Made by a program: the position numbers and the translations under genes
Notes under the pieces: model-generated
Seen by the model: only the letters and a program-made list of their open reading frames with translations
Databases searched by the model: none
What the model was told of the DNA's origin: nothing
Shown: in pieces, positions 17,616 to 50,320 of the stretch
Layout: each line of letters begins with the position of its first letter
How positions within the stretch are numbered: position 1 is the stretch's first letter
NCBI RefSeq assembly: GCF_035084215.1
Contig: NW_027139453.1
Location: forward strand, 8,618,001 to 8,682,000
From: Heptranchias perlo
Lineage: Eukaryota
Direction: 5' to 3'
DNA length: 64,000 nt

Positions 17616-17642
17616 GGAAGTGTACTGTTCGAGGGGCCCGAC

Positions 17643-20905: not shown

Positions 20906-20939
20906 CCATTGTTCTATTATCTCCTCTATCACCGGCCTA

Positions 20940-21726: not shown

Positions 21727-24438
21727 CTATTTAATGAATTTAACAATTACAGTAAAGGGATGTTTCACCACATTCTTCAACTGCTCTCTGAATTTCGCCT
21801 GGGTCACGGCATAAATACAGGTGTTTGTGCAGCAACTCAGGAGTTGGAGCATAAATCCCAGTTCTTGTAAAAGTGGATGTAGAATTACAGGCGTTCGCTC
21901 CAAATACAACAATCGTCGATTCAAAGAATACAACATGAACACCACCCATAACACGATAAAGTTTCCTGAGATAACAAAGAGTAAAATCATTGATTTCCTG
22001 CGACTCTCCATCTCTGGGTCTCTGGGACTCTCCCCACTGCTGTGACCCCGGAGTCTCCTGCGGGCTCTGCTGGCCACGAAAATGTGTCTGACTGTTAAAA
22101 CTTTGAGGAACAGAATCAGAATAAATGGTACACACGGGGTGAGGATATAATGAAGGAATTCGATAACTGCCCATACCGGTGATCCTGAAACACCCGTTAC
22201 ATCAATGCAAAATCAAGGGTTATTGGAAAGAAGATATTCACCTGTGAACATAAAGTACCAGCAAATATTCTTTAAACAGCTCAGCACACTCACTGTTCCG
22301 AGAACCACAGCCGCCGTTTTCTTGGTGCAATAATTAGTTTTCAGCTTCTGGGAACAAATGGCCACAAATCGGTCGAAGGTGAAAGTGACGGTGAACCAGA
22401 CAGAACAGTCTGTGACTGCGTAAAGCAGGACGGCGTGGATATTACACACGGGAAAGTGGTCTAGAAAAGGGAACAGTGAACGATAAATAATGGGAATCTG
22501 CCTCAATATCAGATCGATGATAACGACCAGTAGATCCGCCGCTGCCATGGACACCAGGTAGCGAGTGACACATTTGGAGAGACCGCACTTTCCACCAGAC
22601 AGGATCACAATTGTCAATAAATTCACTGTAAGGAAGCGAAATAAAGATGGGAATTCTCGATCAAGCTGGGACTCTCTGTAAACAATAAAAACGTCTCTGG
22701 AACCACATGTATATATTGGTGCAATCGCTGGATTCTCTGTAAATATTAGTACAGCCTTTGGATCCCCTGTAAATATTAGTACAGTCTCTGGATCATCTGT
22801 AAATATTAGTACAGTCTCTGGATCCCCTGTGAATATTAATACAGTCTCTGGATCCCCAGCAAATATTAGGACAGTCTCTGGATCCCCTGTGAATATTAAT
22901 ACAGTCTCTGGATCCCCTGCAAATATTAGGACAGTCTCTGGATCACCTCTAAATATTAGTACAGTCTCTGGATCCCATGTAAATATTAGTACAGTCTCTG
23001 GATCACATGTAAGTATTCGTACAGTCTCTGGATCCCCTGTAAATATTAGTACAGTCTCTGGATCATCTGTAAATATTAGTACAGTCTCTGGATCCCCTGT
23101 GAATATTAATGCAGTCTCTGGATCCCCTGCAAATATTAGGACAGTCTCTGGATCCCCTGTGAATATTAATACAGTCTCTGGATCCCCTGCAAATATTAGG
23201 ACAGTTTTTGGATCACCTCTAAATATTAGTACAGTCTCTGGATCCCATGTAAATATTAGTACAGTCTCTGGATCCCCTGTAATTATTAGTACAGTCTCTG
23301 GATCCCATGTAAATATTAGTACAGTCTCTGGATCCCCTGTAATTATTAGTACAGTCTCTGGATCCCATGTAAATATTAGTACAGTCTCTGGATCACATGT
23401 AAATATTCGTACAGTCTCTGGATCCCCTGTAAATATTAGTACAGTCTCTGGTCCCCTGTAAATATTACTGCAGTATCTTGATTTCCGGTATATATTAGTA
23501 CTGTGTATGTATCCACCTGTAAATATAATTACCATCTCTGGTTCTCCTGTGAAAATAGTTGCCTCCCTGTATCCACTTATAATTATTAGTACCACCTTCG
23601 GATCAACTGTAAATATTAATACAGTCTCTGAATCCCCCTGTAAATATTAGTGCTGTCTCTGGACCCACTGTATATATTAGTACAGTTTCTGGGTCCCCCT
23701 TTAAATCATAGTACCATTTCTGGTTCCCCTGTAAATATTCGTTGCCTCCCTCTATTGCACTGTAAATATTAGTGCCACCTCCGGATCCACTGTAAATATT
23801 AGTATTGTCTCTGAATTACCTCTAAATTTTACTATCGGCCCTGGACTCCCAGCAAATATTAGCATCATCTCTGGACCACCCTGTAAATACTGACACACTC
23901 CAAGGCCCCATAAAAACAGGCTCATTCCAGGGCTCCCTGAACATACAAACTCACTCCCAGGGTCCCATTGTAAATGAACCCTAACACATAGAAAGCCGCT
24001 TTAAATATATTTCCCATCCATGTTCACCCTATCGCAATAGTTCCCATCCCACGTTAAAACTTTATTTTTTACGGTGGATATTAAGACTCACCAGGAACAC
24101 CGACAGCAGCGAGGAGGGGCTAATAAATAATGAGAACAGTAATACAGTGGAACATGGTGTATAGAATTAATAGTTGGATATAGAGACTTACCAGGAACAC
24201 CGACAGCAGCGAGTAGCGGATAGTATATTAATTGTATACTCTGAAGCATACAATATGTCCGCCCCGCAAATGACATTGAACCATAATATACATGCAGATA
24301 TTGAAATATCCAGAATGGACTGTCCCAATCTATTGTTCTAAGATTCCGACCCATTGCTGTAACATTCCAATCTATTGTTCTAAGATTCCGACCCATTGCT
24401 GTAACATTCCAATCTATTGTTCTAAGATTCTGACCCAT
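21727..24438 (-). pseudogene. GPR139-like: GPR139/GPR142-like GPCR copy B: exon 1 24438..24192, exon 2 22625..21727; single in-frame TGA at 22215-22213
   Basis: Same exon sizes as intact copy C (247+899 nt); GT/AG intact; TFDRFVAIC and SCCTNTCIYA motifs. The Trp codon of C (NTPWFC) is TGA here and the frame continues afterwards. Confidence 0.9.
22725..23880. repeat. 30-bp intronic minisatellite in the intron of GPCR-B
   Basis: Same unit as 105-1500, more homogeneous. Confidence 0.95.
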
Positions 24439-24959
24439 TGTTTGACATTCGAATCTATTGTTCCCGGGTTCCGATCTATTCTCTCCCACTCTGTAGAGCC
24501 GCTGTTCCCTGTTAGTACCGGAGGTGATGCTCCCACTGACACGATGGGATAACACATTGAAAGTAGTCGCTTATTTATGTCACAGGAAAACATTCCAGTG
24601 AGACAATTAGGACCCATGGAGACTGACATTAATTCCAGTCACTGAACAAACAGATTCGGTCAAAACTTTAAACTCAAGGCATATGACATCAAAACATTTA
24701 TTTAATCAAATATTAGACAGATGGAAAGCCCAAAGCCCAGTATATTATTTCAATAAATATTTGGAACAACAGAAGCGATGAGACCCGCAGTCTGACAGCA
24801 TTGAAGCTGGATTTTTGCTTCTGTCTGCTGGTACAATTGTAATTGTTTGTTGAAGCTCCCTATACTTGGATAGAATTGCTACAGTATATAAAGAGCGGTT
24901 TGGCAGGTCTTACATTGTTGGTTTCGTTTACAACAGTGCGCTGAACAATATTCCTGTCA

Positions 24960-26030
24960 GCAATTGGTGGCCTGCTGGGGCTCCCGCTGGGCATAGAAGA
25001 AGACTCGCAGCACGCAGGGAGGTCACGCAGAGCAGATCAAGCTGCGGGGAGAGGGAGGAGGAGGAGGTGCAGGACACTGAGCAGGAGGCCGTATCTCATG
25101 AAGGCCTTCAGGGAACAATACTCTTCCCTCAACATAAGCGGAGGTCAGTGCATCCGATGGCTGCAGTTCACGAATTAGTTCGTGACGGAGATTTGTCAAC
25201 TGCTGCAGCCACAACTGCAGCCTCAGAGCAGGGCAAGGACAACATGGCCTGTGGCTGTCAAGGTAACCATGGCGCTGAACGTTTACGGTTCTGGATCCTT
25301 TCAGGCCTTTGCTGGCGATGTGAGCAACATCTCACAGTTTGCAGTAAACTGCTGTTTAAGGGAGGTCACTGAGGCATTGTACGAGCTGTGTAAAAGGTTC
25401 ATCACATTCCCTCTTGACAGAGAGAAGCAGAATGAGCGAGAGCGAGGCATTGCTCGCATTGCTTCACCATGGTGCCATTGACTGCAAGCATACTGCCATG
25501 TTTGCTCCAAATATCAACTCGGCCACCTTCATGAATGGAAAGGGGTTCCACTCCTTCAATACACACCTGGTGTGCGACCACACGCAACGCACCATACAGA
25601 TCAATGCCCGCTACCCTGGCAGCAGTCATGACACAGCATTCCTACCAGCATGGCAGGTCAAAGTATAGCTATTGGGCGACCAGATCTATCCATTCATGAG
25701 GTGGCTCACGACTCCGGTCAGGAAAGCACGCATACATGGAGAGTCGGCCTACAGAGTGAGCCATGCAGCCACACCAAACATCATGGAGCACACCGTAACT
25801 GTCCTAAAGCAATGCTTCCACTGCGTGGTCCATACTGGAGCAGCACTCGGTTGATTTGGTGTCAAGATTCGGCGTTGCATGCTGCACAACCTCGCCCTTA
25901 GAAGGGAACAACCCTGGCCACTGCCGATCCGGCGAGAATCTGAGCAGCAGGCAGAGGAAGAGGAGAGAGAGGAGGAAGAGGAGGAAGTGGAGGAAATGGA
26001 GGAAGGGCCCAAGAGGCAATAAGGTGCACA
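24960..26030 (+). pseudogene. HARBI1-like: Harbinger transposase, HARBI1-like, frameshifted (copy B)
   Basis: VAVKVTMALNVYGSGSFQ, GAIDCKH, NGKGFHSFN, NARYPGSSHD, LGDQIYP motifs. Confidence 0.88.
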
Positions 26031-26220
26031 GGCCATGTCTGCCAGGGCTCTGCGTGCTCACCTTATTAATGAGTGAAATCAGAAACCTCCACAACACCGC
26101 CCAAGCCACCAACAAAAGTCATACACTCCCCACCCGTCCTCTCACAATCACCCTCCTCATGACTACGCATTGCTTCCAACCGCAGCGCATAATGAAAAAA
26201 AACACCATCAACCAACTTCA

Positions 26221-27385
26221 GGCTTGGGCTGATAAGTGGCAAGTTACATTCACTCCAGACAAATGCCAGACAATGACCATCTCCAACAAGAGAGGGTCCA
26301 ACCAACTCGCCTTGACATTCAACAGCAATACCATCGCCAAATCCCCACCATTAACATCCTGGGGGCCACCATTGAACAGGAACATAACTGAGCCGGCCAC
26401 ATAAATAATGTGGCTACAAGAGCCGGTCAGAGGCTGGTTATTCTGCCGTGAATGACTCACCTCCTGACTCCCCAAAGCCTTTCCACCATCTGCAAGGCAC
26501 AAGTCAGGAGTGTGATGGAATACTCTCCACTTGCCTGGACGAGTGCAGCTCCAACAACACTCAAGAAGCTCCACACCATCCAGGACAAAGCAGTCCGCTT
26601 GTTTGGTACCCCATCCAACACCCGAAACACTCACTATCTTCACCACCGGTGCTCAAACCAGCGACCCCTACCACCTAGAAGGAAAAGGGCAGCAGGCACA
26701 TGGGAACAACACCACCTGCACTTTCCCCTCCAAGTCACACATCATCCCGACTTCGAAATACATGGCCGTTCCTTCATCGCGGCTGGGTCAAAATCTGGAA
26801 CTCCCTCCCTAACAGCTCTGTGGGAGAACCTTCACCACACGGACTGCAGTGGTTCTAGAATCATAGAATCATAGAAGTTTACAACATGGAAACAGGCCCT
26901 TCGGCCCAACATGTCCATGTCGCCCAGTTTATACCACTAAGCTAGTCCCAGTTGCCTGCACTTGGCCCATATCCCTCTATACCCATCTTACCCATGCAAC
27001 TGTCCAAATGCTATTTAAAAGACAAAATTGTACCCGCCTCTACTACTGCCTCTGGCAGCTCGTTCCAGACACTCACCACCCTTTGAGTGAAAAAATTGCC
27101 CCTCTGGACCCTTTTGTATCTCCCCCTCTCACCTTAATTCTATGCCCCCTCGTTATAGACTCCCCTACCTTTGGGAAAAGATTTAGACTATCGACCTTAT
27201 CTATGCCCCTCATTATTTTATCGACTTCTATAAGATCACCCCTAAACCTCCTACTCTCCAGGGAAAAAAGTCTCAGTCTATCCAACCTCTCCCTGTAAGT
27301 CAACCTTCTCAAGGGCAGTTAGGGATGGGCAATAAATGCTCGCCTCGCCAGCGACGCCCACATCCCGTGAACGAAATAAAAAATA
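26221..27385 (+). mobile_element. LINE-A copy orthologous to 3940-4715, interrupted by a CR1
   Basis: KAQVRSVMEYSPLAW; same flanks as in copy A. Confidence 0.85.
26858..27302 (-). mobile_element. CR1 3' end nested in LINE-A (specific to copy B)
   Basis: ERLDRLRLFSLESRRFRGDLIEV; (agaatcat)n tail on the plus strand. Confidence 0.88.
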
Positions 27386-27429
27386 GTGCGGCTTCAAACA
27401 CAAATTTGTAAACGAACACATGATATCAT

Positions 27430-29245
27430 GTGAACACCTTTACCGTATTTACCCTTGTGCATTATTTCAATGCCTGTCACTCGTGTGCCTTTACGTATCC
27501 TAGTGCTCCTCCAAGGTGCATCCCCAGAAGCTGCAGCATGGGTGGTGGGAGGCTGCTGACCTTCAATGGAGGAGAGTGCCGTGGAGGTCGACCTCAAGCA
27601 TTTCTGGGTGAGAGGGCACGGCTTCAGACTCCACCATCCCGGCATGGGCTGCAGCAATCTGACCTGGTTGGCTGACAGGCAACGGGAAGGGCACTGGCAG
27701 AGTGGAAGGGATGGGAGCAGGAATGCTGTCGCCCGAAGAGAGGACAGCAGGTTCGACTGCCATGGCACCATTGCCACTCTCTCGGAGCAGGGCCTCAGCA
27801 CTCCTCGTTGGAGAACAGATTGCTGGAGTGCTGTAACGCCCTGGAAGTCCCGTTCCACGTTGGTAAAGAGAGCCTCGATAACAGCAGTCTGAGCCTGGAA
27901 CGCTGCAGTGTGGGCTTCCAAAGCAGAAATCTGAGCTCCACTGCAGACGTCCAGCACTGCCAGTATCCAGGGCCGCAGCTACGGCCCATCCTATCATGGC
28001 CAGCACTGGATCCTCCATGGGAGTAAGGACGTGTCAGCGTGCTTCTCCTCCTCCATTTCTTTCTTGCTGCCTCCCGAAATGCGCCATCGTCTCCTTCAAG
28101 ATTGAGGGAAGTGTCACAGTGAGTGTCCTGCAAAATGTTTGGATAATGTGGCTGATGTGGTTGAATAGTTGGCAAGTGTGTGTGACCTGTGAGTTGGGGG
28201 TGTGCGGCTTGCAGCAGTGGTCATGTGTGAGGGTGAGAGGAGGATTGCAAGAGTTGACTGCTACTTGAAACAATGTGTTGGTATGTGGGTGATGGAGGTT
28301 TTACTGTGTCGAACAGTGGATGAGGCGAATGGTACAGTTCATAGAATCATAGAAAGTTACGGCACAGAAGGAGGCCATTCGGCCCATCGTTTTGGGTGAA
28401 ATGATCGGCAGACTCGTTCCTTGTCTTGCCTTTCTTTCAATGTTACAGTGCGATAAGCAGGATACAGTCAAGCCCAGTCACGACCTCTTTAGACAGTACT
28501 CCCCAAATCAGCCAATGCGTGGTCCTCGTCCCTTTCTGCTGCCATTGCTCATACCTTGGTCACGCCCACCGAACCCCACTTAATACACACAGACTGGGTA
28601 TGTGGTTCTGCCACTCAAACACCACTTAAAACCAACTGGCTTTGGAACAGTCATTTCCCCCACAAAGACTAGTCTGTCTTTGTTCACCTCAATTAGGTGT
28701 GTGTTTTCTCCCATCAAACTCAATCCTGCCCCGATTGCTGTGTCCTGTTTAGAGTAACATGTGACTTCCCTGTATTTGACTGGTTGTCTCCGTTCATCGT
28801 TCACCAGGCAGCACGTTCAATCTTATGTATATTTTCCCCGGGCTTTGAGTAATACCCAATTTGCATCTGTACAACAAGAATTCAATTGTTAGGCAAGGAC
28901 ATGGTCTCGAATTGACTTTGGTTGGATGGCTGTTCAACCCTCTCAGTCTTCATTGTTTCTCTTTCCCTCATTCATGTTTCAACAGTAGGAGACGCCACTT
29001 GACAGTTGTCCTCACTCACCTTGGCTAGTCGTGTCAAATCATAGAACTTCTTCCTGCACTGCATCCATGTTCTTGGTGCTTCACTCCTGGCATTGACCTC
29101 GTTCACGACTTCCTCCCACTGCCACTTGAGCATATGCCTGGAGGGCCCCTTGACCAACCTCCCACCAACCCAGCAGATACAGGATGACCCTCCTCCTCTT
29201 CACCTCTTCAATCAGAGAACCTTCGTGCACGCTCTCACAGGCGCA
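27430..29245 (-). pseudogene. Harbinger Myb/SANT gene remnant (copy B)
   Basis: WEEVVNEVNARSEAPRTWMQCRKKFYDL..K|gtgagt; paralog of 4780-6604. Confidence 0.75.
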
Positions 29246-29261
29246 TCCATTCACAGCGTCA

Positions 29262-29708
29262 GCTGGGGCTCAGTGGGTCGCCCTCTCTTCATTCAGAAGG
29301 TCGTGGATTCAAGACCCACTCCAGAAACTTGAGCACCAAATCTAGGCTGACACTCCAGTGCAGTACTGAGGGAGTGCAACATTGTTGGAAGAGTCGTTTT
29401 TCGCATGAGACGGAAAACCATGTCCCCGTTCTGCCCTCTCATTTGGATAAAAAAGGTTCCATGGCACAAGATCGAAGAAGAGCAGGGGAGTACTCCCCGA
29501 TGTCCTGGGGTCATTATTTATCCCTCAACCAGCATCACTAAAACATAGATTATGTGGTCATTATCAAATTGCTGCTTGTGGGAGCGTGCTTTGCGCAAAT
29601 TGGTTGCCAGGTCACCGACATTACAACAGTGACACTTCATTGGCTGTGAAGCGATTTGGTACGTCCTGAGGTTGTGAAAAGTGCTATATAAATGCAAGTC
29701 TTTTTTTT
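29262..29708 (+). mobile_element. DeuSINE-type SINE (copy B ortholog of 6610-7065)
   Basis: Same head, core, tail and flanks. Confidence 0.75.
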
Positions 29709-29996
29709 CGCTTCAATATATTCCAGCATAGATTTACTTCCCAATGGGCGTCCACCAATTCCTGCTGCCACATTGTACCTCTCCTTTAAGAGGGGCAGGC
29801 TGCCTTTCAGTCGAACTAGCCACTCCCGGGATCTGGACAAACTGCTGGTGCCTGCAGCTAATCAACGCACCAATCATTGAAATCATCAGGCAGCAAGAAT
29901 GTTCGGTGCTGCCTCCATCGCCACTAACGGCTGCGGGTTAATCGCGCACTGCGATGCCAGCGTCCGTTTTTGATGGTTATCCAACAAAAGCACCAC

Positions 29997-30400
29997 TGTG
30001 TTTATAAACACCTCAGTGTAATTCACCCAATGTACAGAACTGTGAGGTTTCCGCCGATGTGACAGCTTTCTGTGTTTATAAAAACCTCAGTGTATTTCAC
30101 TCAGTGTCCAGAACTGTGAGGTCTCCCCTGATGTGACAGCTTTCTGTGTTTATAAACTTCTGTAGTAATGGCGAGGCCGACGTGCACCAAGTTTCTCAGA
30201 CTACGCACTGGAGGCCTGGATGGAGGAGCACAACTGTGGAGCCAACCATGACGCAGAGCCTGTTGACCAATGTCACATCTTCCATTGCAGCACAAATCAA
30301 TGTCAAAGGTGTTTATGATTCATTTGGAAGCTCAGATTGTTGCGTTACAGGCTCCATTCTCCACCAGATCTCCAGATTGCTGAGGCGCTTCCAGCCTTAG
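29997..30400 (+). pseudogene. 74-bp repeat (about 2 units) plus internally deleted second Myb gene
   Basis: Sequence homologous to about 7750 is joined directly to sequence homologous to about 8710 near 30226. Confidence 0.7.
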
Positions 30401-30999
30401 GTGCGCCGGACGCCATCTTGGTGAAGGGTTTTGCGTGCCCGCAGATAACGAAAGCCTGCAACATGTCAAGTAGGGATAATATGCGTTAGATCAGTGTGCA
30501 ACGCGGATTTAAAGTGATGGACAATATTTTGGGACTTAACGCTCTACTCAAAGACCAGTCTTAACCCCAACCATCAGCACGTATCTTAGAGTGAATGATG
30601 GACCCCCACCAGCCCTATTTAAAGGGACCATGCAGGATTTAAAGTTTAGTTGCTGAATTATTGCTTCTGGCCACTGATGCATTTGTACCACTTTTGGAGG
30701 TCTCCTATAATTGAATACTCGGACATGGGGAAATAGCCTAACATTTAGAGCCAGGACATGCAGGTGTGAACTGAGGAAACGCTTCTACACGCAAAGGTAG
30801 GGAAAAGTTTGGATCGCTCTTCCGCAAACTGAAGTTGATGCTCGCTCAATTGTGAATTGTAAATCTAAGATTGATAGATTTCTGTGAACCAAGGATATTA
30901 AGGGATATGGGACTAAGACGGGTATATGTGGTTAGGTCAGAGGTCCACCATGATCTCAGTGAATGGCGGAACAGGGTCGAGGGGCTAAATGTAACTGCC

Positions 31000-31530
31000 G
31001 CTCGCTATCCCCTGTTATGCATCACCTCCTCTTGCAAGAACGCGAGAATTGTGTCGGTGAGTGTCCTGCAGGATGTTGGGTGATGTGCCTGTCATGGTTG
31101 AATGGCTGCCAGTGTGTGTGACCTTGCAGCAGTGGTAATGTGTGATCGTGAGTGGAAGCATCTGGTAAGAAGAGTTGAATACTGCTTGAAAGAGTTTGTT
31201 GGTAGGTGGTTGATGGTGGGTGTAGTGCGTGGAGCAGTTTAAGTGGCGAGTGGTGCAGTTGGTAGGAGAAGCCAGTTGACAGTTGACCTCAATCACCTTG
31301 GCCACTCAAGACAAAGCATTGAACTTCTTCCTGCATTGCATCCATGTTCATGGTGCTATGCTCCTGGCATTGACTTCGTCCCACGTTGCCTCCGACTGCC
31401 TTGGGAGCATTTGCCTGCAGGGCCTCGTGCCCCTCTGCGGATACAGGATGCCCCTCATTCTGTCCACCTCTTGCACCAAGGCTTTAGTGCATCATCAGAG
31501 AACCTTGGTGCACGCTCCCTCGCAGGCCTG
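31000..31530 (-). pseudogene. Third Myb/SANT exon remnant (copy B)
   Basis: Paralog of 9480-10002 (WMQCRKKFN). Confidence 0.7.
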
Positions 31531-32489
31531 GTACAAATTCAGATCGGCAGATTGGTGAGGTCTGGTGTGCAGATTGAAGGATGTGTGATTTAGTGGTGTG
31601 CAACCTTTATTTAATGATTCAACATAACTCATCAGTTTGTAAACAGGGACGGTACCTGTATCTATGTTTCACGTGTGTGATTTCTGATCTCCGCTTAGAT
31701 TCTCTGCAAATAAGAGATGCAGAATGTCGCCAAGAGGTGCAGCCTGCCTTTAAGAGGTGGGAGTAAATCATGCCATTCGGGCCATATTCAATTTAACTCC
31801 CATCCTCCTTACTTTACATGATGCTAGTGTTTGTTATCCGCACGTGCGCAAACGACTTTGTCAAAATGGCATCGAGTGCTCGTCACACGAGATGCGTGCA
31901 TTCCGGACTCCATTTTGAGAACTGAAGAGGCCGTATTGTGGCTGAAAATTGGGCGCTGCACGGGCCAATTCCTGGATGCATTGTGCCTGTTGCATGGAAT
32001 ACAGCACGGCACAGACAATGGCCATTCGGCCCATATGGGTAAAAAGTTCCCATGAAAACGTTATTAAACAACAACAACTTGACTAAAGTGGCAGAAAACC
32101 TCAACTCATTCAAAAAGTACCTGGATGTGCACTTTAGGTTCCGAAAACGACAGGGCTACCGACCAAGTGCTGGAAAGTGGGATTAAGCTGGACAGATCTT
32201 TTTCGGCCAGCAGACACGATGGGCCGAAAGGCCTCCTTCTGTGCCATAACTTTCTTTGATAAATATGTAATTGTATTAGATTATGGATATTTTGCATCGA
32301 ATGCACACTACAGCACAGAAGCCATTCGGCCCAGCTGCTATTTCTATTTTACAACTTCGTGTCCACAGAATATCCCTTTTTATATTGTCAGAGTCCGACC
32401 ATCTCATAACCTTCCTCATACAAACAATCATAGAGTTTGACGAATTCATACTTTAGAGCACGTTTCTGTTAATTCACTCCAAACAAATT

Positions 32490-34720
32490 CACACTACAGG
32501 CCCTTTGGCGACGCCATTACAGTTTTCAATACTTCGTACCATTGCTGATGCCAATTACACTTTCCCCAGTACACAGTCCCTTTGGCAACGACTGGCATAA
32601 TTTTCAATACACCGTTCCTTTGGCGATGCCTAGTACACTTTCCCCAATACACCGTCCCTTTGGCGATGCCGAGTACACTTTCCCCAATACACCGTCCCTT
32701 TGGCAACGGCTGACATAATTTTCAATACACCGTCCCTTTGGCGATGCCGAGTACACTTTCCCCAATACACTGTCCCTTTGGCGATGCCGAGTACACTTTC
32801 CCCAATACACCTTCCCTTTGGCGATGCCGAGTACACTTTCCCCAATACACCGTCCCTTTGGCGATGCCGAGTGCACTTTCCCCAATACACCGTCCCTTTG
32901 GCGATGCCGAGTACACTTTCCCCAAATACACCGTCCCTTTGGTGAAGCCGAGTGCACTTTCCCCAATACACCGTCCCTTTGGTGAAGCCGAGTACACTTT
33001 CCCCAATACACCGTCCCTTTGGTGAAGCCGAGTACACTTTCCCCAATACACCGTCCCTTTGGTGAAGCCGAGTACACTTTCCCCAATACACCTTCCCTTT
33101 GGTGAAGCCGAGTACACTTTCCCCAATACACCGTCCCTTTGGTGACGCCGAGTACACTTTCCCCAATACAACGTCCCTTTGGCGATGCCGAGTACACTTT
33201 CCCCAATACACCGTCCCTTTGGTGACGCCGAGTACACTTTCCCCAATACACCGTCCCTTTGGCGATGCCGAGTACACTTTCCCCAATACACCGTCCCTTT
33301 GGCGACGCCGAGTACACTTTCCCCAATACACTGTCCCTTTGGCGATGCCAAGTACACTTTCCCCAGTACACCCTCTCTTTGGCGATGCCGAGTACACTTT
33401 CCCCAATACTCCGTCCCTTTGGCGATGCCGAGTACACTTTCCCCAATACACCGTCCCTTTGGCGACGCCGAGTACACTTTCCCCAATACACTGCCCTTTG
33501 GCGACGCCGAGTACACTTTCCCCAGTACACCCTCTCTTTGGCGATGCCGAGTACACTTTCCCCAATACACCGTCCCTTTGGCGATGCCGAGTACACTTTC
33601 CCCAATACACCGTCCCTTTGGCGATGCCGAGTACACTTTCCCCAATACACCGTCCCTTTGGCGATGCCGAGTGCACTTTCCCCAATACACCGTCCCTTTG
33701 CCGATGCCGAGTACACTTTCCCCAATACACCCTCCCTTTGGCGACGCCGAGTACACTTTCCCCAATACTCCCTCCCTTTGGCGACGCATCGTACACTTTC
33801 CCCAATACACCCTCCCTTTGGCGATGCCGAGTACACTTTCCCCAATACACCCTCCCTTTGGCGATGCCGAGTATACTTTCCCCAATACACCGTCCCTTTG
33901 GGCACGCCGAGTACACTTTCCCCAATACACCCTCCCTTTGGCGACGCATCGTACACTTTCCCCAATACACCGTCCCTTTGGCGATGCCGAGTACACTTTC
34001 CCCAATACACCCTCCCTTTGGCGATGCCGAGTACACTTTCCCCAATACACCCTCCCTTTGGCGATGCCGAGTACACTTTCCCCAATACACCGTCCCTTTG
34101 GCGATGCCGAGTACACTTTCCCCAATACACCGTCCCTTTGGCGATGCCGAGTGCACTTTCCCCAATACACCGTCCCTTTGGCGATGCCGAGTACACTTTC
34201 CCCAATACACCCTCCCTTTGGCGACGCCGAGTACACTTTCCCCAATACACCCTCCCTTTGGCGACGCATCGTACACTTTCCCCAATACACCCTCCCTTTG
34301 GCGATGCCGAGTACACTTTCCCCAATACACCGTCCCTTTGGCGATGCCGAGTACACTTTCACCAATACACCGTCCCTTTGGGCACGCCGAGTACACTTTC
34401 CCCAATACCCCCTCCCTTTGGCGACGCATCGTACACTTTCCCCAATACACCGTCCCTTTGGCGATGCCGAGTACACTTTCCCCAATACACCCTCCCTTTG
34501 TCGATGCCGAGTACACTTTCCCCAATACACCCTCCCTTTGGCGATGCCGAGTACACTTTCCCCAATACACCCTCCCTTTGGCGATGCCGAGTACACTTTC
34601 CCCAATACACCCTCCCTTTGGCGATGCCGAGTACACTTTCCCCAATACACCCTCCCTTTGGCGATGCCGAGTACACTTTCCCCAATACACCTTCCCTTTG
34701 GCGATGCCTACTACATTTTA
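32490..34720. repeat. 40-bp satellite (ccccaatacaccgtccctttggcgatgccgagtacacttt), about 55 homogeneous units
   Basis: Exact 40-bp period with no unique spacers. Confidence 0.97.
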
Positions 34721-35274
34721 CAATACTCCGTACCCCATGCCAGCCCCAGATACTTTCCAGCGTCCTCTCTGGGCTGTTTTCAGGGAGCTGTATCTCAGCA
34801 AAAGCAGTATCCTTCTTTCCCTTGTGCCTCACCCTTATAACTCTCAGCTGACTGGGGAAGGTCTTCACCCACTCCAGACTTCATTACTTCCTAAAGGTGA
34901 GGTCCATTAAAAGAACCATACCTCTCCTCTTAAAGTGGAGGTTTCTTAAAAGGGCCAAACACTTACTTGGGGATCACAGCCCTCAGATACCGTGCTACGA
35001 GGGGCATAAAAGACTGAAACGAGTCCATATAGGGGTACAAGGGACTGAGTGGTGAATGAGAGGAGTCCTTATAGAGGGGTATACGGAACTTAGTGAGGAA
35101 TGAGGGGGGCCCTTACAAATGGCTGTTCCATCCCATCCCTTATGGAGACTCAACCCCTCCACCCCTATTGCTCGCACCCACATGAACACTGCCCCTCTCC
35201 TTCCCTCCATGTCTTAGTTTGGTTATCAGTGCTCAGGTACTGTTGAGATCAGTCTGCCCTCTGTTATAGTGCGT

Positions 35275-36440
35275 GAGGTTGAGTGTGTTTGTGAGTGTCA
35301 GTGTCTGTGTGTGTGTCGGTGAATCTAGGTGTGAGTGTGTGGGTGTGTCTGTGAGTTTTTATCTGTGAGTGTGTGAATGTAGCTGTGATTATTTCTGAAA
35401 TTGTGACTATGATGGTGTCTGTGAGCGTCTCTGTGAGTGTGGCTGCGATTGTGCCTGTTAGTGCCGCAGTGATTGTGTCTGTGAATGCGGCTGTGTGCGC
35501 GTCTGCAAGTGTGGCTGTGTGTGTGAGACTGTTTGTGGCTGTGACTGTGTCTGTGTGTGTGGTTGTGAGTGTAGCAGTGTGAGTGTCTTAGTGTGACTGT
35601 GATTGTGTCTGTGTGTGACTGTGATTGTGTCTATGAGTCTGGCTGTGTGTGTGGCTGTGTGTGGCTGTGAGTGTGTCTGTGAGTGTGGCTTTGAATGTGT
35701 CTGTGTGTGACTGTGATTGTGTCTGTGTGTGTCTGCGAGCGTGTCTGTGAGTGTGGTTATGAGTGTGGCTGTGTGCGTGTTTGTGAGTGTGGCTGTGAGT
35801 ATGGCTGTGTGACTGTGTTTATGTCTGCTGGTGTATCTGAGAGTGTGGCTGTGTGTGTGCCTGTGTGTGGCTGTGAGTGTGGCTGTGAGTGTGCCTGATA
35901 GTGTGACTGTGAGTGTGAATGTGATTGTGTCTGCGAGTTTGTCTGTGAGTGCGGCTGTGTGTGTGGTTATGAGCGTGTCTGCGAGTGTGCCTGTACGTGT
36001 GGCTGTGTGTGACTATAGGTGTGGCTGTTTGTTGCTTTAAGCATGACTGTGATTGTGACTGTGAGTGTGTCTGTGAGTGTGACTGTGTGTGGCTGTGAGT
36101 GTGGCCGTGAGTGTGTCTGTGAGTATGAGTGTGATTGCGTCTGTGTGTGACGGTGATTGTGTCTGTTAGTGTGTCTGTGTATGTGTCTGCGAGTGTGTCT
36201 GTGAGTGTGGCTCTGTGTGGCTGTATGTGTGGTTGTGCGTGGCTGTGAGTGTTGCTGTGGCTGTGACCCTGAGTGTGTCTGTGAGTTTGTCTATGAGTGT
36301 GTCTGTGAGTGTGTCTGCGAGTGTGTCGGGGAACGTGTCTGCTTGTGTGTCTGCGAGTGTTTCTGTGAGTGTGGCTGTGAGTGTGTCTGTTAGTGTGACT
36401 GTGATTGTGTCAGTGATTGACTGTGATTGTGTCTGTGAGT
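35275..36440. repeat. TG-rich cryptic repeat, left part (copy B)
   Basis: Paralog of 12555-13660; resumes at 38730. Confidence 0.95.
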
Positions 36441-38728: not shown

Positions 38729-38729
38729 A

Positions 38730-39140
38730 GTGCGTCTGTGTGTGTGTGTGTCTCTGAGTGTGTCTCTGAGTCTATCTGTGGGTGTGTCTGTGATTGTGTC
38801 TGTGCGTGGCTGTGTGTGGCTATGTTTGTGAATGTCAGTGTGAGTGTGAGTTTGTCCGAGTGTGTCGGTGAGTGTGGCAGTGATTGTGTCTGTGAGTGTG
38901 GTTGTGTGTGTCTGTGAGTGTGTCTGTGAGTGTGTCTGCTAGTATGTCTGCGAGTGCCCCTGTGTATGTGGCGGTGTGCGCGTCTGTGAGTGTGTCTGTG
39001 AGAGTAGTCTGTGATTGTGTCCGTGAGTGTGTCTGTGATTGTGTTTCTTTGTGTGTCTGGCTGTGACCGCGACTCTGTGTGTGGTTGTGTGTGTGTCTGT
39101 GAGTGTGTCTGTGACACTGTCTGTGTGTGTGTCTGTGAGT
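38730..39140. repeat. TG-rich cryptic repeat, right part; abuts inverted unit C
   Basis: Direct inspection. Confidence 0.92.
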
Positions 39141-39142
39141 AT

Positions 39143-40395
39143 GGCTGCAATGGAAGCTGTGACATTGGTCAACAGTCTCTGCATCATGTTTGGTTCCACA
39201 GGTGTGCTGTTGGAGGTGACCACCCGTTCTGAGTAGGAAATGATGGGCTCCACGCTCTGTGCAAAGCCCTGTGCCAAGTTTTTGGTGGTCTCCTCCATGC
39301 CCCTTGATGTTGTGTGCAAGCTTTCCAGTGCACCAAGCAATTTGTTTTGTACACCCATCAGCCATCCTCTGTAGCCTGGCACATTGAAGTCCTTATCTTA
39401 CTCCTCGGCAGCAGAACCAGTGCTCTCCGGTGAGCTGGCACCTGTGGTATCCGTTCCCCCTGCCCCGGCTCCTGCGCACTTGTGCCCGGTCTCTCACCAT
39501 GTGCCAATGCCTCCACTAAACTACGCACCGTGGGAGTCTCTGAATTGGTGGCTGGGAATATAAGATCGAGTGACGGTGTGTCTATATCATCACTGTCATC
39601 TTCGTCTGCCTCCACCCACTGGGCAGGTTCCGGTTCTTGGGCATCTGCAATGACAACGGGACACGGGTAGAGTTGTGGTGCGGGGAGAGGAGACAGAAAG
39701 ATGTGCGTGCTTACATCATTTGCAGCACGTGAGCCAGAACAGCTTGTGGGATGAGGGAGAAGTGGGAAGCAAGAAGGAGCATGACGTGTGCATTGTCGAG
39801 ACCCACTTCGTCGTTGTTGCCAGCAACCCTAGTGGCCATGGCCGCAGCGACAACCCGCCCAATGATGGCCAGCACTGTCTCCTCCACTGAGAGTCCTGCA
39901 AGATGTTTGTGTGATGTGGCTGTCATGGTTGTGATTAATGGTGCATTTGGTAGGAGACACCACTTGACAGTTGAATTTACTCACCTTGAGCACTCGTGTC
40001 AAAAGGTTGAACTTCTTCGTGCAATGCATCCGTGTGTGTGGTGCCATGCTCCTGGTATTGAATCCAATCTCAGTATGTGTCTGGTGGGCCCATTGCACAC
40101 AACCAACAACCTCCCCCAACCCGGCCCTGCGGATACTTGATGCCCCTCTGTGTGTCACTCTCCTCCACTAAATCCTCCAATGCGTAGCCTGAGAAACTTG
40201 TTGCACGCAGGCCCCGCAATTACGACAGAAGTGTTTTTAAATCAGAAAGGTGTCACATCAGGGGACACCTCACAGTTCTGGACACTGGGTGAAATACACT
40301 GAGGTGATTATAAACACAGAAAGCTGTCAAATCAGGGGACACCTCACAGTTCTGGACACTGGGTGAAATACACTGAGGTATTTATAAACACAGAG
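39143..40395 (-). pseudogene. Second Myb gene and 74-bp repeat (about 2 units), inverted (copy C)
   Basis: Reverse complement of about 7370-8772; RMHCTKKFNLLTRVLK|gtgagt. Confidence 0.75.
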
Positions 40396-40704
40396 GTGCT
40401 TTTATTGGAGAACCACCAAAAATGGACGCTGGCATCGCGGTAAGGAATGAAACCACACCCTTTGGTTGTAATGCAGGCAGCACAAAACATTCTTGCTGTC
40501 TGATGATTTCAATGATTGCTGCTTGCAGCCAGTGCTACCTCCGCTGTTGATTAGCTGCAGGCACCAGCAGGCTGTCCAGATCCCGGGTGTGGCTCGTTCC
40601 ACTTAAATGCAGCCTGCACCTCTTAAACGGGAGGAACAATGTGGCTGCAGGAAGTGGTGGAAGCCCATTGGGAAGTAAATCTGTGCTGGAAAATACTGAA
40701 GGAT

Positions 40705-41145
40705 AAAAACAAAAGATTTGAATTTATATAGCTCTTTTCACAATCTCAGGACATACCAAAGCGCTTTAAAGCCAATGAAGTGCAGTCACGATTGAAATGA
40801 AGTTAACTGGCAGCCAATTTGCGCACAGCACGCTCCCATAAACAGCAGTTTCATAATGAGCAGATAATCCGTGTTTTCGTGATGTTGGTTGAGGGATAAA
40901 TATTGGCCTCAGGACACCGGGGAGGACTCCCGTGCTCTTCTTCGCAATAGTGCCATTTTGTCTTTAATGTCCACCTGAGAGGGCAGATCGAGCGACGGTT
41001 TCATGTGTCATCGGAAAGACGGCTCCTCCAACAATGCTGTACTCCCTCAGTACTGCACTGGAGTGTAAGCCGAGATTTTATGCTGAAGTTTCTGGGTTGG
41101 GTCTCGACATTCTGACTCACGAGAGGTCGACCCACTGAGCCCCAG
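40705..41145 (-). mobile_element. DeuSINE-type SINE (copy C, inverted)
   Basis: Reverse complement of 6610-7065. Confidence 0.75.
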
Positions 41146-41159
41146 CTGACACTGTGAAT

Positions 41160-42000
41160 GGCTGCGTCTGTGGGAGCTTGCACCAGGTTCTCTGCTGGAA
41201 GAGGTAGAGAGGAGGAGGGGAATCCTATGTCCGCGCGGGTAGGGGGCGAGGGGACGGTGATGGGTGGGCATGAGGCCTTCCAGGTATATGCTCAAGTGGC
41301 AGTGGGAGGAAGTAATGAAAGAGGTCAATGCCAGTAGTGGTAGCACCAAGAACAGGAAGGAGTTCAATGATTTGACACGACTGGTTAAGGTGAATGAGGT
41401 CAACTGTCAAGTGGCGTCTCCTACTGTTTAGACATGAATGAGGGAAAGTGAAACAATGAAGACTGAGAGAGTTGAACAGCCACCCAACCAAAGTCAAGTC
41501 GAGGCCATGTCCTTGCCTAACAATTGACTTCCTGTTGTACGGATGGAAATTGGGTATTATTCAAAGCCCGGGGAAAATATACATAAGATTGAACTTGCTG
41601 CCTGTTGAACGATCAACGGAGACAACCAGTCAAATACATGGAAGTCACATGTTCCTCTGAACAGGACACAGCAATCGGGGCAAGATTGAGTTTGATGGGA
41701 GAAAACTCACACCTAATTGAGGTGGACAAAGACAGACTAGTCTTTGTGGGGGAAATGACTTTTCCAAAGCCAGTTGGTTTTAAGTGGTGTTTGAGTGGCT
41801 GACAAAGATACCCAGTCTGTGTGTATTAAGTGCTCGAGGTCGACCTCTATGGCCATCTGCACTCTCCTCCACTGAAGGTCAGCAGCCTCCCACCACCCAT
41901 GCTCCAGCCACTGCGGATGCACCTTGTCGGAGCACTAAGATAGGTAAAGGCACAGGAGTGGCAGGCACTAAAATAATGCACAAGGGTAAATCGGGTAATG
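41160..42000 (+). pseudogene. Harbinger Myb/SANT gene remnant with internal deletion (copy C)
   Basis: LLEEVERRRGILCP...WQWEEVMKEVNA..RKEFNDLTRLVK|gtgaat; deletion junction near 41830. Confidence 0.7.
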
Positions 42001-42239
42001 GTGTTCACATGATTTCACGTGTTAGTTTATAAATTTGTATTTGAAGTGTTTGATGTTGGATATATTAATGTGCTGCGGGAGGAAGCAATGTTTAATCACG
42101 AGGAGGACGATTGGGATGTGGGAGAGGACAGGTGGGGAATGCAAGAGTGTTGGTGACTTGGCAGGTGTTGTTGAGGTTACTGATATCACTCATTAATAAT
42201 GTGAGCACGTAGAGCCCTTGCAGACGGGATCTGTACAAC

Positions 42240-43317
42240 TTATTGCCTCCTTGCCTCCTCCTCCAGTTCCTCCTCGCCCTCCTCTTCCTCCGCTCCCTCC
42301 TTTTCCTCTGCCTGTAGCTCAGGATCACGCCAGATAGACAGTGGCCAGGGCTGTTGCGTTATGAGGGCGAGGTGGTGCAGCATACATCGACGAATCTTGA
42401 CACCCGCTAAGCGGAGTGCTGCAGGGTTCCACCAGAATGGACCAGGCAGCGGAAGCGTATCTTGAGGACACCAACAGTGCGCTCGGTGACGTTTTGTGTG
42501 GCTGCATGACTCCCTCTGTCGGCCTGCTCTGCGTGTGTGCGTGTGTTCCTGACCGGAGTCGTGAGCCAACTCATGAGGGGATAGATCTGGTCGCCCAATA
42601 GGCAGCCGTTGACCTGCCATGCTGACAGGACTGACGCATAATGAAGGTGTCATACTGCTGACAAGGTAGCGGGCATTGACCTGTATGATGCGTTGCATAT
42701 GGTCGCACACCAGGTGTATATTGAAGGAGTGGAAGAACTTTCTGTTCATGAACATGGCCAAGTTGATATTTGGAGCACACATGGCAATGTGCTTGCAGTC
42801 AATGGCACCATGGGGAAGCAATGCGAGCAAAGCCTCGCTCTCGCTCATTCTGCTTCTCTCTGTCAAGTGGGAATGTGATGAACCTTTTACACAGCTCGTA
42901 CAGTGCCTCAGTGACCTCCCTTATACAGCAGTGCACTGCAAACTGTGAGATGTTGCTCACATCACCAGCAGAGGCCTGAAAGGATCCAGAGCCGTAAATT
43001 TTCAGCGCCATGGTTACCTTGACAGCAACAGACAAAGCTGTCCTTGCCCTGCTCTGAGGCTGCAGTTGTGGCTGCAGAAGTTGACAAATCTATGTTGGGA
43101 ACTGTTTCGTGAACTACAGCCATCGGATGCACTGACCTCCGCTTATGTTGAGGTAAGAGTATTGTTCACTGAAGGCCTTCATGAGATACAGCCTCCTGCT
43201 CAGTGCACTGCACCTCCTCCTCCTCCCTCTCCTCGCAGCTTGATCTGCTCCTCCTGACCTCTCTGCTTGTTCCATGTCGTCTTCTACACTCGGCGGGAGC
43301 TCCAGCAGGTCACCCAT
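42240..43317 (-). pseudogene. HARBI1-like: Harbinger transposase, HARBI1-like, frameshifted (copy C)
   Basis: GSGSFQ, GAIDCKH, NRKFFHSFN, HAATQNVTERTVGVLKIRFRCL motifs. Confidence 0.88.
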
Positions 43318-43588
43318 GGCTGGCAGAAATCTTGTTCAGCGCACTGTTGTAAATGACACCAACAATGTAAGACCTGCCAAACCGCTCTTTATTTAGTGTA
43401 GCAACTCTATCCATAAATAGGAAGCATGAAGAAACAAGTAAAATTTTACCAGCAGCCAGAAGCAATAATCCAGCTTCAATGCTGTCAGACTGCGGGTCTC
43501 AAAGTTTCTGTTGTTCCAAATATTTATTGAAGGAATAAACTGGGCTTTGTGCTTTCCATCTAAGTAATACTTGATTAAATATATGTTT

Positions 43589-43709
43589 TGATGTCATATT
43601 CGTTGAATTTAAAGTTGTTAACCGAATCTGTTTGTTCAGTGACTGGAATTAATATCAGTCTCCGTGGGCCCTAATTGTCTCAATGGAATTTTTTCGTGTG
43701 CTATAAATA
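43589..43709 (+). promoter_or_regulatory. Putative GPCR-C promoter: CRE-like TGATGTCA (43589-43596) and TATAAATA (43702-43709)
   Basis: The octamer is conserved in all three copies (2391-2398, 24684-24691); the TATA lies about 135 bp before the ATG. Confidence 0.45.
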
Positions 43710-43842
43710 AGCGAATACATTCAATTTGTTATCCAATAGTGTCAGTGAGAGCATCACCTCTGGCACTAACAGGGATCAGCGGATCTACAGAGTGGGAGAG
43801 AATAGATCGGAACCCGGGAACAATAGAAAGGAATTTTAAACA

Positions 43843-45893
43843 ATGTGTCGGAATCTTAGAACAATAGATTGGAATGTTACAGCAATGGGTCGGAATCTTA
43901 GAACAATAGATTGGAATGTTACAACAATGGGTCAGAATCTTAGAACAATAGATTGGGACAGTCCATTCTGGATATTTCAATATCTGTATGTATATTATGC
44001 TTCAATGTCATTAGAGGGGAGGACACATTTTGTGCTTTTGAGCACACAATTAATATACTATCCGCTCCTCGCTGCTGTCGGTGTTCCAGGTAAGTCTCAA
44101 TATCCAACTATTAATTCTATAAACCATGTTCCACTGTATTACTGTCCTTGTCATTCCCTGTGCCATACTCTCTGCTGTTCGAGTTTCCGGGAAGACTCTG
44201 TATTCCCTGTAAAAATTAAAATGTTAACTTGGGATGGAAAATATAGCGATAGGGGGAACATAGATGGGAAATATATTTATGGGGGTTTTCTAGGTGTGAG
44301 GGTTAATTTACAATGGATCCATGGGAGTGAGTTTGTCTATTCAGGGAGCCCTCGCATGAGCCTGTTTTTACTGGGACCTGAGGGTGTGTCAGCATTTACA
44401 GGGGGTTCAGAGATGCTACTATTATTTGCAGGGAATCCAGGAACGAAAGTAAAATTTGCAGGGGGATGAAGAGACAGCACGAATATTTAAAGGCGATCAA
44501 GAAACTGTACTAATATTTAAAGGTGGATCCAGGGACTGTACTAATATGTACAGGGGGATCCAGAGACTGTACTAATATTTAGTGGGGATCCAGTGACGGT
44601 ACTAATGTTCACAGTTGATCCGGAGGTGGAATTAATACTTACAGGAGGATCCACGGAGGCATCTAATATTTACAGGAGACCCAGATACTGTGCTAATACT
44701 TGGAGGGCATCCAGAGATTGTACTATACTTACAGGGGTCCAGAGACTGTACAAATATTTTCAGGGGATCAAGAGAATGTGCTCATATTTACAGTTGATCC
44801 AGAGACTGTACTAATATTTACCGGGTATCCGGAGACTGTACTAATATTTACAGGAGAACCAGAGATTCTATTAATATTTACAGGACATCCAGAGACTGCA
44901 TGAGTATTTATAGGTGGTTCCAGAGATGTTATTATTGTTCAAAGAGGGTGCCAGCTTGATCTAGAATTTTCATTTTTATTTCCCTTCCTTGCAGTTAATT
45001 TATTGACAATTGTGATCCTATCTCGTGGAAAGTGCGGTCTCTCCAAATGTGTCACTCGCTACCTGGTGTCCATGGCAGCGGCGGATCTACTGGTCATTAT
45101 CATCGATCTGATATTGAGGCAGATTCCCATTCTTTATCGTTCACTGTTCACTTTTCTATACCAACTTCCCTTGTGTAATATCCACGCCGCCCTGCTTTAT
45201 GCAGTCACGGACTGTTCTGTCTGGTTCACCGTCACATTCACCTTTGATCGATTTGTGGCCATTTGTTGCCAGAAGCTGAAAACTAAATATTGCAACGAGA
45301 AAACGGCGGCTGTGGTTCTGGGAACAGTGAGTCTGCTGAGCTGTTTGAAGAACATTTTCTGGTACTTTATTTTCGAAGGTCCATATCAGCTTTCCAATAC
45401 CCCTTGGTTTTGTTTTCCAGTGATAGGTGTTGTATCATCACCGGTATGGGCAGTAATCGAACTCCTTCATTATGTCCTGAATCCATGTGTCCCATTTATT
45501 CTGATTCTGTTCCTCAATGTTTTAACAGTCAGACACATTTTAGTGGCCAGCAGAGCCCGAAGGAGACTCCGGGGTCACAGCAGTGGGGAGAGTCCCAGAG
45601 ACCCAGAGATGGAGAGTCGCAGGAAATCAATGATTTTACTGTTTGTTATATCAGGAAACTTTATCGTGTTATGGGTGGTGTTCATGTTTTATTCTATTAA
45701 TCGACGATTGTTGTATTTGGACTCTACGTCTGTAATTCCACCTCCACTTGTACAAGAGCTGGGATTTATGCTCCAGCTCCTGAGTTGCTGCACAAACACC
45801 TGTTTTTATGCCGTGACCCAGGCGAAATTCAGAGAGCAGTTGAAGAACGTGGTGAAATATCCCTTTACTGTAATTGTTCAATTCATTAAATAG
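43843..45893 (+). CDS. GPR139-like: GPR139/GPR142-like GPCR copy C, intact: exon 1 43843..44089, exon 2 44995..45893, 381 aa
   Basis: CCAG|GTAAGT donor and ttgcAG|TTAAT acceptor give YYPLLAAVGVP-VNLLTIVILS, with the intron in TM1 as recalled for GPR139. Seven hydrophobic segments; MAAADLL, SVWFTV, FDRFVAIC motifs; 1146 nt open to TAG. Confidence 0.93.
44470..44930. repeat. 30-bp intronic minisatellite in GPCR-C (short, degenerate)
   Basis: gatccagagactgtactaatatttacagg units. Confidence 0.9.
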
Positions 45894-49485: not shown

Positions 49486-49589
49486 ATCCAATGAAGCACA
49501 TCTGTCAGCCGTGGCTCAGTTGGCAGCATTCAAGCCTTTGGCTCCTAAATTTGTCGCTGTTTTATGCCCCAAAGACTTTCCCGCTGGTG

Positions 49590-50240: not shown

Positions 50241-50320
50241 GGAATCTTACCTTTTCTGAGCTCAGGTTTCATTCCTGTGACTCTTATTTCTAATCTCTCT
50301 TGCCTTCCCTTTTTTTGCAG

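Follow-up and report, generated by a model that had tools for sequence, protein, structure and literature searches.

Receptor gene copies in the window

The window, a 64-kb stretch of Heptranchias perlo DNA, contains three segmental-duplicate copies (A, B and C) of a two-exon class A GPCR gene together with a fourth copy (D), so that four copies, two of them broken, are spread across 51 kb (Table 1). Exon 2 is broken in two (B and D) of the three copies that have this exon inside the window. Copy A has an exon 1 with two N-terminal repeat units, the pre-TM1 segment and the start of TM1 in an open frame ending at a GT donor, and its exon 2 begins at position 8 and is truncated by the window edge. 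The unit carrying A also matches part of the C unit (39144-44203), in inverted orientation and again with 82-84% identity.

Table 1. Positions of receptor exons, duplicated units and tandem repeats within the 64-kb window
Feature	Position	Strand	Remarks
Copy A exon 1	1940..2144	-	74% to exon 1 of C by tblastn; scanned for donor and acceptor sites
Copy B exon 1	24192..24438	-	three ATG-led repeat units of 14 aa, then pre-TM1 and TM1 start
Copy B exon 2	21727..22625	-	TM1 end through C-terminus
Copy C exon 1	43843..44089	+	three 14-aa repeat units, two NVT sequons, pre-TM1, TM1 start
Copy C exon 2	44995..45893	+	Pfam 7tm_1, E=1.8e-19
Copy D exon 2	50321..51223	+	deep-branching family member; pseudogene, two frameshifts and one stop
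Upstream part of duplicated unit carrying A	1823..11314		matches B unit 24075-32853, direct, 82-84% identity
30-bp tandem repeat, copy A intron	77..1509		also 22693-23889 (B), 44394-44926 (C)
57-bp tandem repeat on the 3' side of copy B	20919..21468		also 45962-47297, 3' of copy C

The genes in the window are class A (rhodopsin-like) GPCRs. Exons 1 and 2 of copy C form an intact receptor of 381 amino acids that scores 70.7 bits against Pfam (cut-off 30.5), folds in an AlphaFold model into a helix bundle with helix 8, and keeps the class A switches D2.50, DRF, P5.50, W6.48, N7.49 and Y7.53. The introns of B (1566 nt) and C (905 nt) have GT-AG borders in phase 1, and each of these two genes comprises 381 codons. 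In copy B a single TGA interrupts ECL2 at codon 220 (22213-22215), and the substitution N257K falls in a column that is otherwise invariant among 99 relatives; this copy is a young pseudogene or null allele.

Copy D is 56% identical to a Scyliorhinus torazame protein with which it groups in the tree (support 100), and its exon 1 was searched for in 47301-50320 and not found there. This copy is much older than A-C and lies beyond positions 21727..45893, the interval covered by an earlier sequence-only reading of this DNA. Four runs of one sample and study, presumed to be of RNA origin and consisting of contigs only, yielded 101, 68, 58 and 43 matching contigs, mostly less than 99% alike. No contig joint skipped the 905-nt intron among the 15 listed of 18, and acceptor sequence of the intron type was present in several contigs; these contigs bear on transcription in neither direction.

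Divergence of loops, pocket and inner face

All motifs quoted by the sequence-only reading were found in the sequence. That reading had described dense B/C differences in the extracellular loops and a variable pre-TM1 segment, and both descriptions hold: with loop borders taken from the AlphaFold model, 19 of the 43 ECL codons are different between B and C, compared with 22 of the 254 other codons of exon 2 (Fisher p=6e-8), as are 9 of 30 residues in the pre-TM1 segment. The ICL3/TM6 identity that it reported is also real, extending over 48 amino acids (residues 266-313) with 3 synonymous changes, though its synonymous rate of about 0.09 is ordinary and the stretch is conserved family-wide, and thus it is nothing special to this pair. 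Gene conversion as the source of the identity was ruled out, since of about 32 synonymous sites 3 have changed.

In the same comparison, loop pN (0.28) exceeds both whole-gene pS (0.11; p=1.6e-4) and the divergence of flanking non-coding DNA (307/2186=0.14; p=7.6e-4), and exon 2 outside the loops has a pN of 0.04, with a TM dN/dS of 0.17. The loop pN/pS ratio is about 2.2-2.8, a value from a single codon-level pair of which one member, B, bears a stop. The excess is borderline when measured against the loops' own synonymous sites (p=0.061; p=0.038 with kappa 2), and has p=0.043 against an intron-only baseline.

A protein-level control in the wider family agrees strongly with faster loop change. 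The ECLs have diverged more than the ICLs in 46 of 50 disjoint shark pairs versus none of 10 amphibian pairs, with TM divergence matched at about 0.10. The earlier suggestion of a birth-and-death repertoire with faster extracellular divergence is supported. The 25 pocket positions differ by 1.2% between amphibian orthologues and by 19.6% between shark paralogues. Pockets vary between subfamilies and loops vary within them: positions such as 2.57, 2.61, 3.28, 3.29, 5.40 and 5.43 show less than 0.3 bits within the subfamily (99 sequences) and reach at least 3 bits across 67 family representatives, in all of which D2.50, R3.50, P5.50, W6.48, N7.49 and Y7.53 are fixed. Within a close clade, divergence is 0.04 in the pocket and 0.27 in the ECLs. 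The ECL/TM ratio is near 2 in the low-copy D lineage too.

Extent and relatives of the family

Of 3592 candidates, 2317 reached E<=1e-10. The chondrichthyan clade spans 20 species, including a chimaera, and H. perlo has at least 103 distinct clusters on many scaffolds, all 103 representatives of which span 270 or more of the 299 query residues. The shark and ray receptors are a birth-and-death repertoire with many tandem and dispersed copies plus pseudogenes. Trees, built from proteins that include neither GPR139 nor GPR142, contain sub-lineages common to sharks and rays and place as sister of this clade (98/93 support) a gene of amphibians and sturgeon that is apparently single-copy and has a near-invariant pocket. 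Paralogues are mosaic, with incompatibility in 66 of the 190 informative site pairs and one protein (P0010) switching affinity midway, and imported segments can therefore mimic selection. About 10 kb separate one cluster from T-cell-receptor-like V segments; as to a conserved linkage with TCR-beta, a GPR139-like gene is not named in the available portions of the TRB literature searched.

Judged by sequence, the closest characterised human receptor is GPR139, within a broad GPR139/142/210-related group. A profile search of the PDB ranked GPR139 chains best (E=3.3e-15), followed by the next receptor at 7.1e-9, with 3 sequences passing 1e-8. A fold search placed peptide and chemokine receptors on top, yet at least 500 matches had similar E-values, so this ranking does not discriminate. 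Like the shark genes, human GPR139 (and GPR142) has two exons, H5.43 and W6.48, with an aromatic residue at 3.33 in copy C. Unlike GPR139, which is single and conserved, the shark genes are multi-copy and fast-evolving, lack N7.38, and have a longer ICL3 and a TM3-ECL2 cysteine pair that is missing from human GPR139 in the alignment. The sequence-only reading had compared these genes with GPR139 and GPR142, but they are not expanded orthologues of these receptors: copy C is only about 27% identical to human GPR139 (E=1.6e-5), compared with 70% for the zebrafish GPR139 orthologue, and the F3.33/H5.43/W6.48/N7.38 site is incomplete, reading Y, H, W and F in copy C.

The nearest bony-vertebrate relative is instead the separate amphibian/sturgeon gene, annotated 'probable GPR139' (for example XP_069092602.1), which shares the ICL3-TM6 motif and the cysteine pair. 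Both features also occur in coelacanth and teleost GPR210-type orphans (Rinne 2019, PMC6504862), the next outgroup, in which P0252/P0259 are candidates for GPR210A or B. The amphibian gene forms one cluster per named species, and its inner loops vary more than its outer loops, the reverse of sharks.

More distant systems offer parallels. Some family members and look-alike clusters match Pfam Srw/Srx, and nematode srw chemoreceptors are expanded. The invertebrate Srw/FMRFamide/MIP-receptor-like group is at most about 27% identical, and its expansion is independent. According to the available part of PMC8514136, GPR139/142 share an origin with the MIP, FMRFa, proctolin and myosuppressin receptors of invertebrates. 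Vertebrate OR, TAAR, V1R/ORA as well as V2R/OlfC repertoires belong to an unrelated sequence clade and resemble the shark family in birth-and-death evolution, pseudogenes, a fixed signalling face and a variable ligand face. MRGPR and formyl-peptide receptors are lineage-specific class A expansions that act in sensory neurons or immune cells, recognise a variety of peptides and evolve rapidly on the extracellular side. Their homology to the shark family goes no further than class A, and excerpts of PMC8455134 report MAS1 relatives as missing from cartilaginous fishes, so the MRGPR likeness is that of a functional analogue only.

Candidate functions of the repertoire

On balance, we favour a reading in which cartilaginous fishes would have in these genes a diversified repertoire of ligand-sensing GPCRs, arising by amplification of an ancestral gene and two-tier diversification and serving varied peptide or small-protein ligands. 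The ancestral gene persists in amphibians and sturgeon, apparently as one copy with a fixed pocket. In chondrichthyans it was amplified through segmental duplication of multi-kb units, and copies are still being gained, lost and shuffled. The activation switches and intracellular face are retained by the copies, which are thus probably all coupled to the same G protein. In one tier, old subfamilies differ in the helical pocket; in the other, recent duplicates, B and C among them, retain the pocket as their loops and helix tips outrun neutral DNA. This two-tier pattern suggests ligands that anchor in the pocket and touch the loops, as varied peptides or small proteins might, and the wider group, with its invertebrate MIP/FMRFamide/proctolin receptors, is one of peptide receptors. 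Weighing against the reading are the single codon-level pair with its stop-bearing member, the borderline excess over the loops' own synonymous sites, the mosaic paralogues, the ECL/TM ratio near 2 in the D lineage, the largely kept Trp/Phe site of subfamily C and the two broken copies. The ligands would most likely be foreign or highly polymorphic, and the candidate cells would be either immune or chemosensory ones in nose, taste, skin or gut.

A bolder form of this proposal is tentative. The receptors might be an overlooked fifth chemosensory family, or an MRGPR/FPR-like system of innate peptide surveillance, expressed one or a few per cell. They would then be the largest class A repertoire of cartilaginous fishes, derived from a neuropeptide-receptor-like gene that, at the base of Chondrichthyes, was no longer bound to one ligand. 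If true, this would overturn the view of GPCR-poor sharks smelling almost only with V2Rs.

The accessible portion of PMC10116579 gives sharks only 6-13 OR, 3-5 TAAR, 2-4 V1R and 8-43 V2R genes, each set smaller than the 103 H. perlo clusters. More than 100 receptors in one species, mislabelled GPR139, exceed the published shark olfactory counts combined and alter the GPCR-poor picture of shark genomes presented in parts of PMC8455134. In the literature searched, with subscription journals and some supplements outside its scope, the expansion has no description beyond the automated label 'probable GPR139', and the main text of PMC10620051 does not mention it. The ancestral ligand could be approached through the conserved sister gene of amphibians.

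It is unlikely that the receptors are GPR139/GPR142-like chemosensors that hold free amino acids deep in the pocket, with subfamilies tuned to different side chains. The amino-acid ligand idea of the sequence-only reading derives from the GPR139 name. In its favour, the family profile matches GPR139 best among PDB entries, and between-subfamily pocket differences would suit small ligands. Where the GPR139 agonist site has F109, H187 and W241, copy C bears Y, H and W, so that two of the four Trp/Phe-site residues are retained and one is changed conservatively, and three of four are kept or nearly kept in subfamily C. However, F stands in place of N271, the family as a whole is hypervariable at three of the four positions (at least 3 bits), and its cysteine pair is absent from human GPR139. 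These residues support amino-acid sensing by the shark receptors weakly. A small buried ligand would also leave unexplained why young duplicates alter their loops and not their pocket, and the endogenous ligand of GPR139 is itself described as unsettled, with peptides also activating this receptor, in the available part of PMC7318219.

Two further explanations appear somewhat less probable still, and about equally so. In the first, the ligand is endogenous and conserved, and the receptor's outer surface is driven by an arms race in which pathogens, parasites or venoms bind it. The fixed pocket and hypervariable rim within a subfamily agree with this, as does the cluster near V segments, although the family is scattered over many scaffolds and this neighbourhood may therefore be due to chance. 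However, the pocket varies across the family, and evasion centred on one hormone receptor would not need 100 or more copies. In the second, a duplication-prone, repeat-rich unit multiplies and dies largely neutrally, with unconstrained loops whose differences are inflated by gene conversion. The repeat-laden units, the two broken copies in the window and the mosaic paralogues fit this scheme, but loop non-synonymous divergence in the B/C units is about twice that of flanking non-coding DNA, and the low TM dN/dS, the near-complete coverage in all H. perlo representatives and the sub-lineages common to sharks and rays argue against it.

Reproductive proteins typically evolve fast at their surface. 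Receptors for reproductive or social recognition, co-evolving with fast-evolving self ligands such as pheromones or seminal or egg peptides, nevertheless seem very improbable here, even though the wider group holds insect sex-peptide/MIP receptors, according to the accessible sections of PMC8514136.

Receptor copies in the window and the extent of the family

Translation and tblastn revealed four members of one GPCR family within the window: A, B and C, which are copies of a two-exon gene in duplicated units, and D, a more distant copy. Copy C encodes an intact 381-aa protein from two exons separated by a 905-nt GT-AG intron. Copy B is collinear with C without indels and carries a TGA at codon 220, in extracellular loop (ECL) 2, as well as N257K, a substitution at a position where 99 relatives show no variation. 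Copy D (~42% identity to C) is broken by two frameshifts and one stop. The A and B units are in direct orientation and the C unit is inverted; the three have tandem repeats in common, and their upstream non-coding sites are 13-15% divergent. Several LINE-like fragments are also common to the duplicated units. In A and B, the end of exon 1 and its splice donor recur ~100 bp inside the intron, giving a second GT donor from which alternative splicing is possible.

Features located in the window
Feature	Position	Strand	Basis or remark
Copy A exon 1	2144-1940	-	only exon visible; exon 2 starts at position 8
Copy B exon 1	24438-24192	-	translation, tblastn
Copy B exon 2	22625-21727	-	translation, tblastn
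Copy C exon 1	43843-44089	+	translation, tblastn
Copy C exon 2	44995-45893	+	translation, tblastn
Copy D	50321-51223	+	pseudogene, tblastn
42-bp coding tandem repeat	43843-43968	+	ATG starts each unit, NVT sequon in most
42-bp coding tandem repeat	24325-24463	-	as preceding
42-bp coding tandem repeat	2073-2169	-	as preceding
Repeated exon-1 end and donor	1780-1973; 24090-24200	-	copies A and B
Long minisatellite	32501-34719		40-bp x 56 at 91% match; long spurious ORFs
Long minisatellite	15527-17620		39-bp x 54; long spurious ORFs
LINE reverse-transcriptase-like remnants	4097-4713; 51366-52641; 53491-54746; 55692-56296; 58673-59419		presumed, from motifs
Open V segments	61807-62139; 63250-63582	+	heptamer, 23-bp spacer, nonamer

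With exon 2 of C as query, 2317 clusters (90% identity) were retrieved at E<=1e-10 among 3592 candidates, the closest database matches (up to 95%) being from Heptranchias perlo. The best 120 of the 2317 comprise 65 from H. perlo, 38 from Heterodontus francisci and 17 from Pristiophorus japonicus. At least 103 clusters are from H. perlo, a lower bound that allelic scaffolds and isoforms could nonetheless inflate; each covers at least 270 of the 299 query residues, and 93 of the 103 are still distinct at 95% core identity. Named members span 20 species (11 sharks, 8 rays and skates, and Callorhinchus milii), and in each species the matches are spread over many scaffolds. The sub-lineage of copy D is old and low-copy. 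Its full-length members come from catsharks, horn shark, zebra shark, whale shark, rays and skates, and the top matches listed include none of its proteins from H. perlo.

The copy C receptor is a class A GPCR whose best solved relative is human GPR139 (pairwise E=1.6e-5, profile E=3.3e-15), with an identity of only ~27% as counted on the printed alignment; zebrafish and human GPR139 share 70% (PMC7318219). In a 26-row maximum-likelihood tree, built without GPR139 and GPR142 and rooted on two long, invertebrate-like rows, the chondrichthyan sequences lie on one side of one branch with moderate support (81/95), an amphibian/sturgeon gene is their sister (98/93), and coelacanth and teleost 'GPR139-like' orphans fall outside this group. 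A 90-row quick tree, likewise lacking both receptors, is consistent with this arrangement. Extra GPR139/142 subtypes, GPR210A/B, are described in coelacanth and fishes by Rinne 2019 (PMC6504862), in the text of which the word 'shark' is absent, and the MIP, FMRFamide and proctolin receptors of invertebrates share their origin with GPR139/142 (PMC8514136). On these grounds, the database label 'GPR139' is a best-hit name.

The amphibian/sturgeon orphan bears the label 'probable GPR139' and has a nearly invariant pocket. It is not GPR139 (E=2.6e-13 to the human chain), and it is not obviously among the GPR210 sets in Rinne 2019.

Divergence of the extracellular face

The sequence-only reading held that the paralogs differ mainly on their extracellular face, and all the motifs it quoted are found in the window. 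The observation is real: when an AlphaFold model of exon 2 (pLDDT 73) is used to set the loop borders, 19 of the 43 ECL codons distinguish B from C, compared with 22 of the 254 exon-2 codons outside the ECLs (p=6e-8). At the codon level, for this one pair with one broken member, and with sites treated as independent in mosaic paralogues, non-synonymous divergence (pN) in the loops is 0.28. This value exceeds the whole-gene synonymous divergence (pS) of 0.11 (p=1.6e-4) and the 0.14 of flanking and intronic DNA of the two units (307/2186; p=7.6e-4); it compares with 0.18 for the unique intron alone (p=0.043), and set against synonymous sites within the loops themselves (pS 0.13) the excess is borderline (p=0.061, or 0.038 with kappa 2). 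With hand-set borders, omega is 2.8 in the loops and 0.17 in the helices. ECL1 and ECL3 alone hold 11 non-synonymous differences and 1 synonymous. That the paralogues are mosaic follows from the four-gamete test, failed by 66 of 190 informative site pairs among nine close copies. The affinity of one database protein, P0010, switches halfway along, which could also be an annotation artefact.

The nearest relative among bony vertebrates served as the control, represented by one sturgeon protein and 20 amphibian clusters that all take their names from separate species (P0242, P0280-P0299). Disjoint nearest-neighbour pairs were compared, with transmembrane (TM) divergence near 0.10 in shark and amphibian sets alike. 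Shark paralogue pairs diverge by 0.30 in the ECLs and 0.10 in the intracellular loops (ICLs), whereas amphibian orthologue pairs show 0.11 and 0.30; ECL divergence exceeds ICL divergence in 46 of 50 shark pairs versus 0 of 10 amphibian pairs. Because the control shows the opposite pattern, the shark loop variability goes beyond the ordinary GPCR norm. At 25 pocket-facing positions picked by generic numbering, divergence is 1.2% among amphibians versus 19.6% among shark paralogues. The low-copy lineage of copy D falls in between (ECL/TM 1.9; pocket 42% at TM 30%), and the release of the pocket is therefore clade-wide.

Within the family, the activation switches are invariant across 67 representatives at 37-70% identity (70 of 150 matches were long enough; four outgroups were set aside), and the inner loops are conserved among paralogues. 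Among the 99 sequences of the B/C subfamily, the pocket is nearly fixed at many positions, and ECL2, ECL3, ECL1 and the TM6/TM7 tips reach 3-4 bits; those near-invariant pocket positions reach at least 3 bits across subfamilies. In the predicted N-terminus, a 14-aa unit that begins with ATG and includes an N-glycosylation sequon is repeated, its copy number ranging from none to at least four among database paralogues. Such differences in unit number are predicted either to make the glycosylated N-terminus variable or to provide alternative start sites.

Candidate ligands, alternatives and genomic neighbours

Our literature search, with some supplements and subscription journals beyond its reach, returned no paper on this expansion, nor do the keyword passages of shark and ray genome papers and of the whale shark paper (PMC8455134) mention it. 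The latter describes a relative paucity of GPCRs in cartilaginous fishes and an absence of MAS1 relatives; Syed 2023 (PMC10116579) counts 6-13 OR, 3-5 TAAR, 2-4 V1R and 8-43 V2R genes. Birth-and-death receptor repertoires are already known, and this clade appears to be undescribed as one.

We somewhat favour a reading in which the copies would have a common G-protein output, the pocket would act as a subfamily-specific ligand anchor, and young copies would be tuned at the level of the loops; the ligands would therefore be varied and of peptide size. Of the four GPR139 residues required for activation by Trp/Phe (PMC5430874), copy C retains H187 and W241, whereas F109 is replaced by Y and N271 by F. 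In the alignment, the human GPR139 chain shows no counterpart of the family's TM3-ECL2 cysteine pair. Small amino acids as the ligands of these receptors seem unlikely to us. Pathogen evasion as the cause of the loop divergence is improbable, as is a neutral expansion of the copies, and reproductive recognition is very improbable.

Because the family is dispersed, we treat as unproven for function its adjacency to the two V segments, which probably mark the edge of a TRB locus ~10 kb from copy D. These segments are 66% identical to each other and may resemble the TRBV30 type, and their top-scoring single-V-domain PDB matches are T-cell receptor beta chains.
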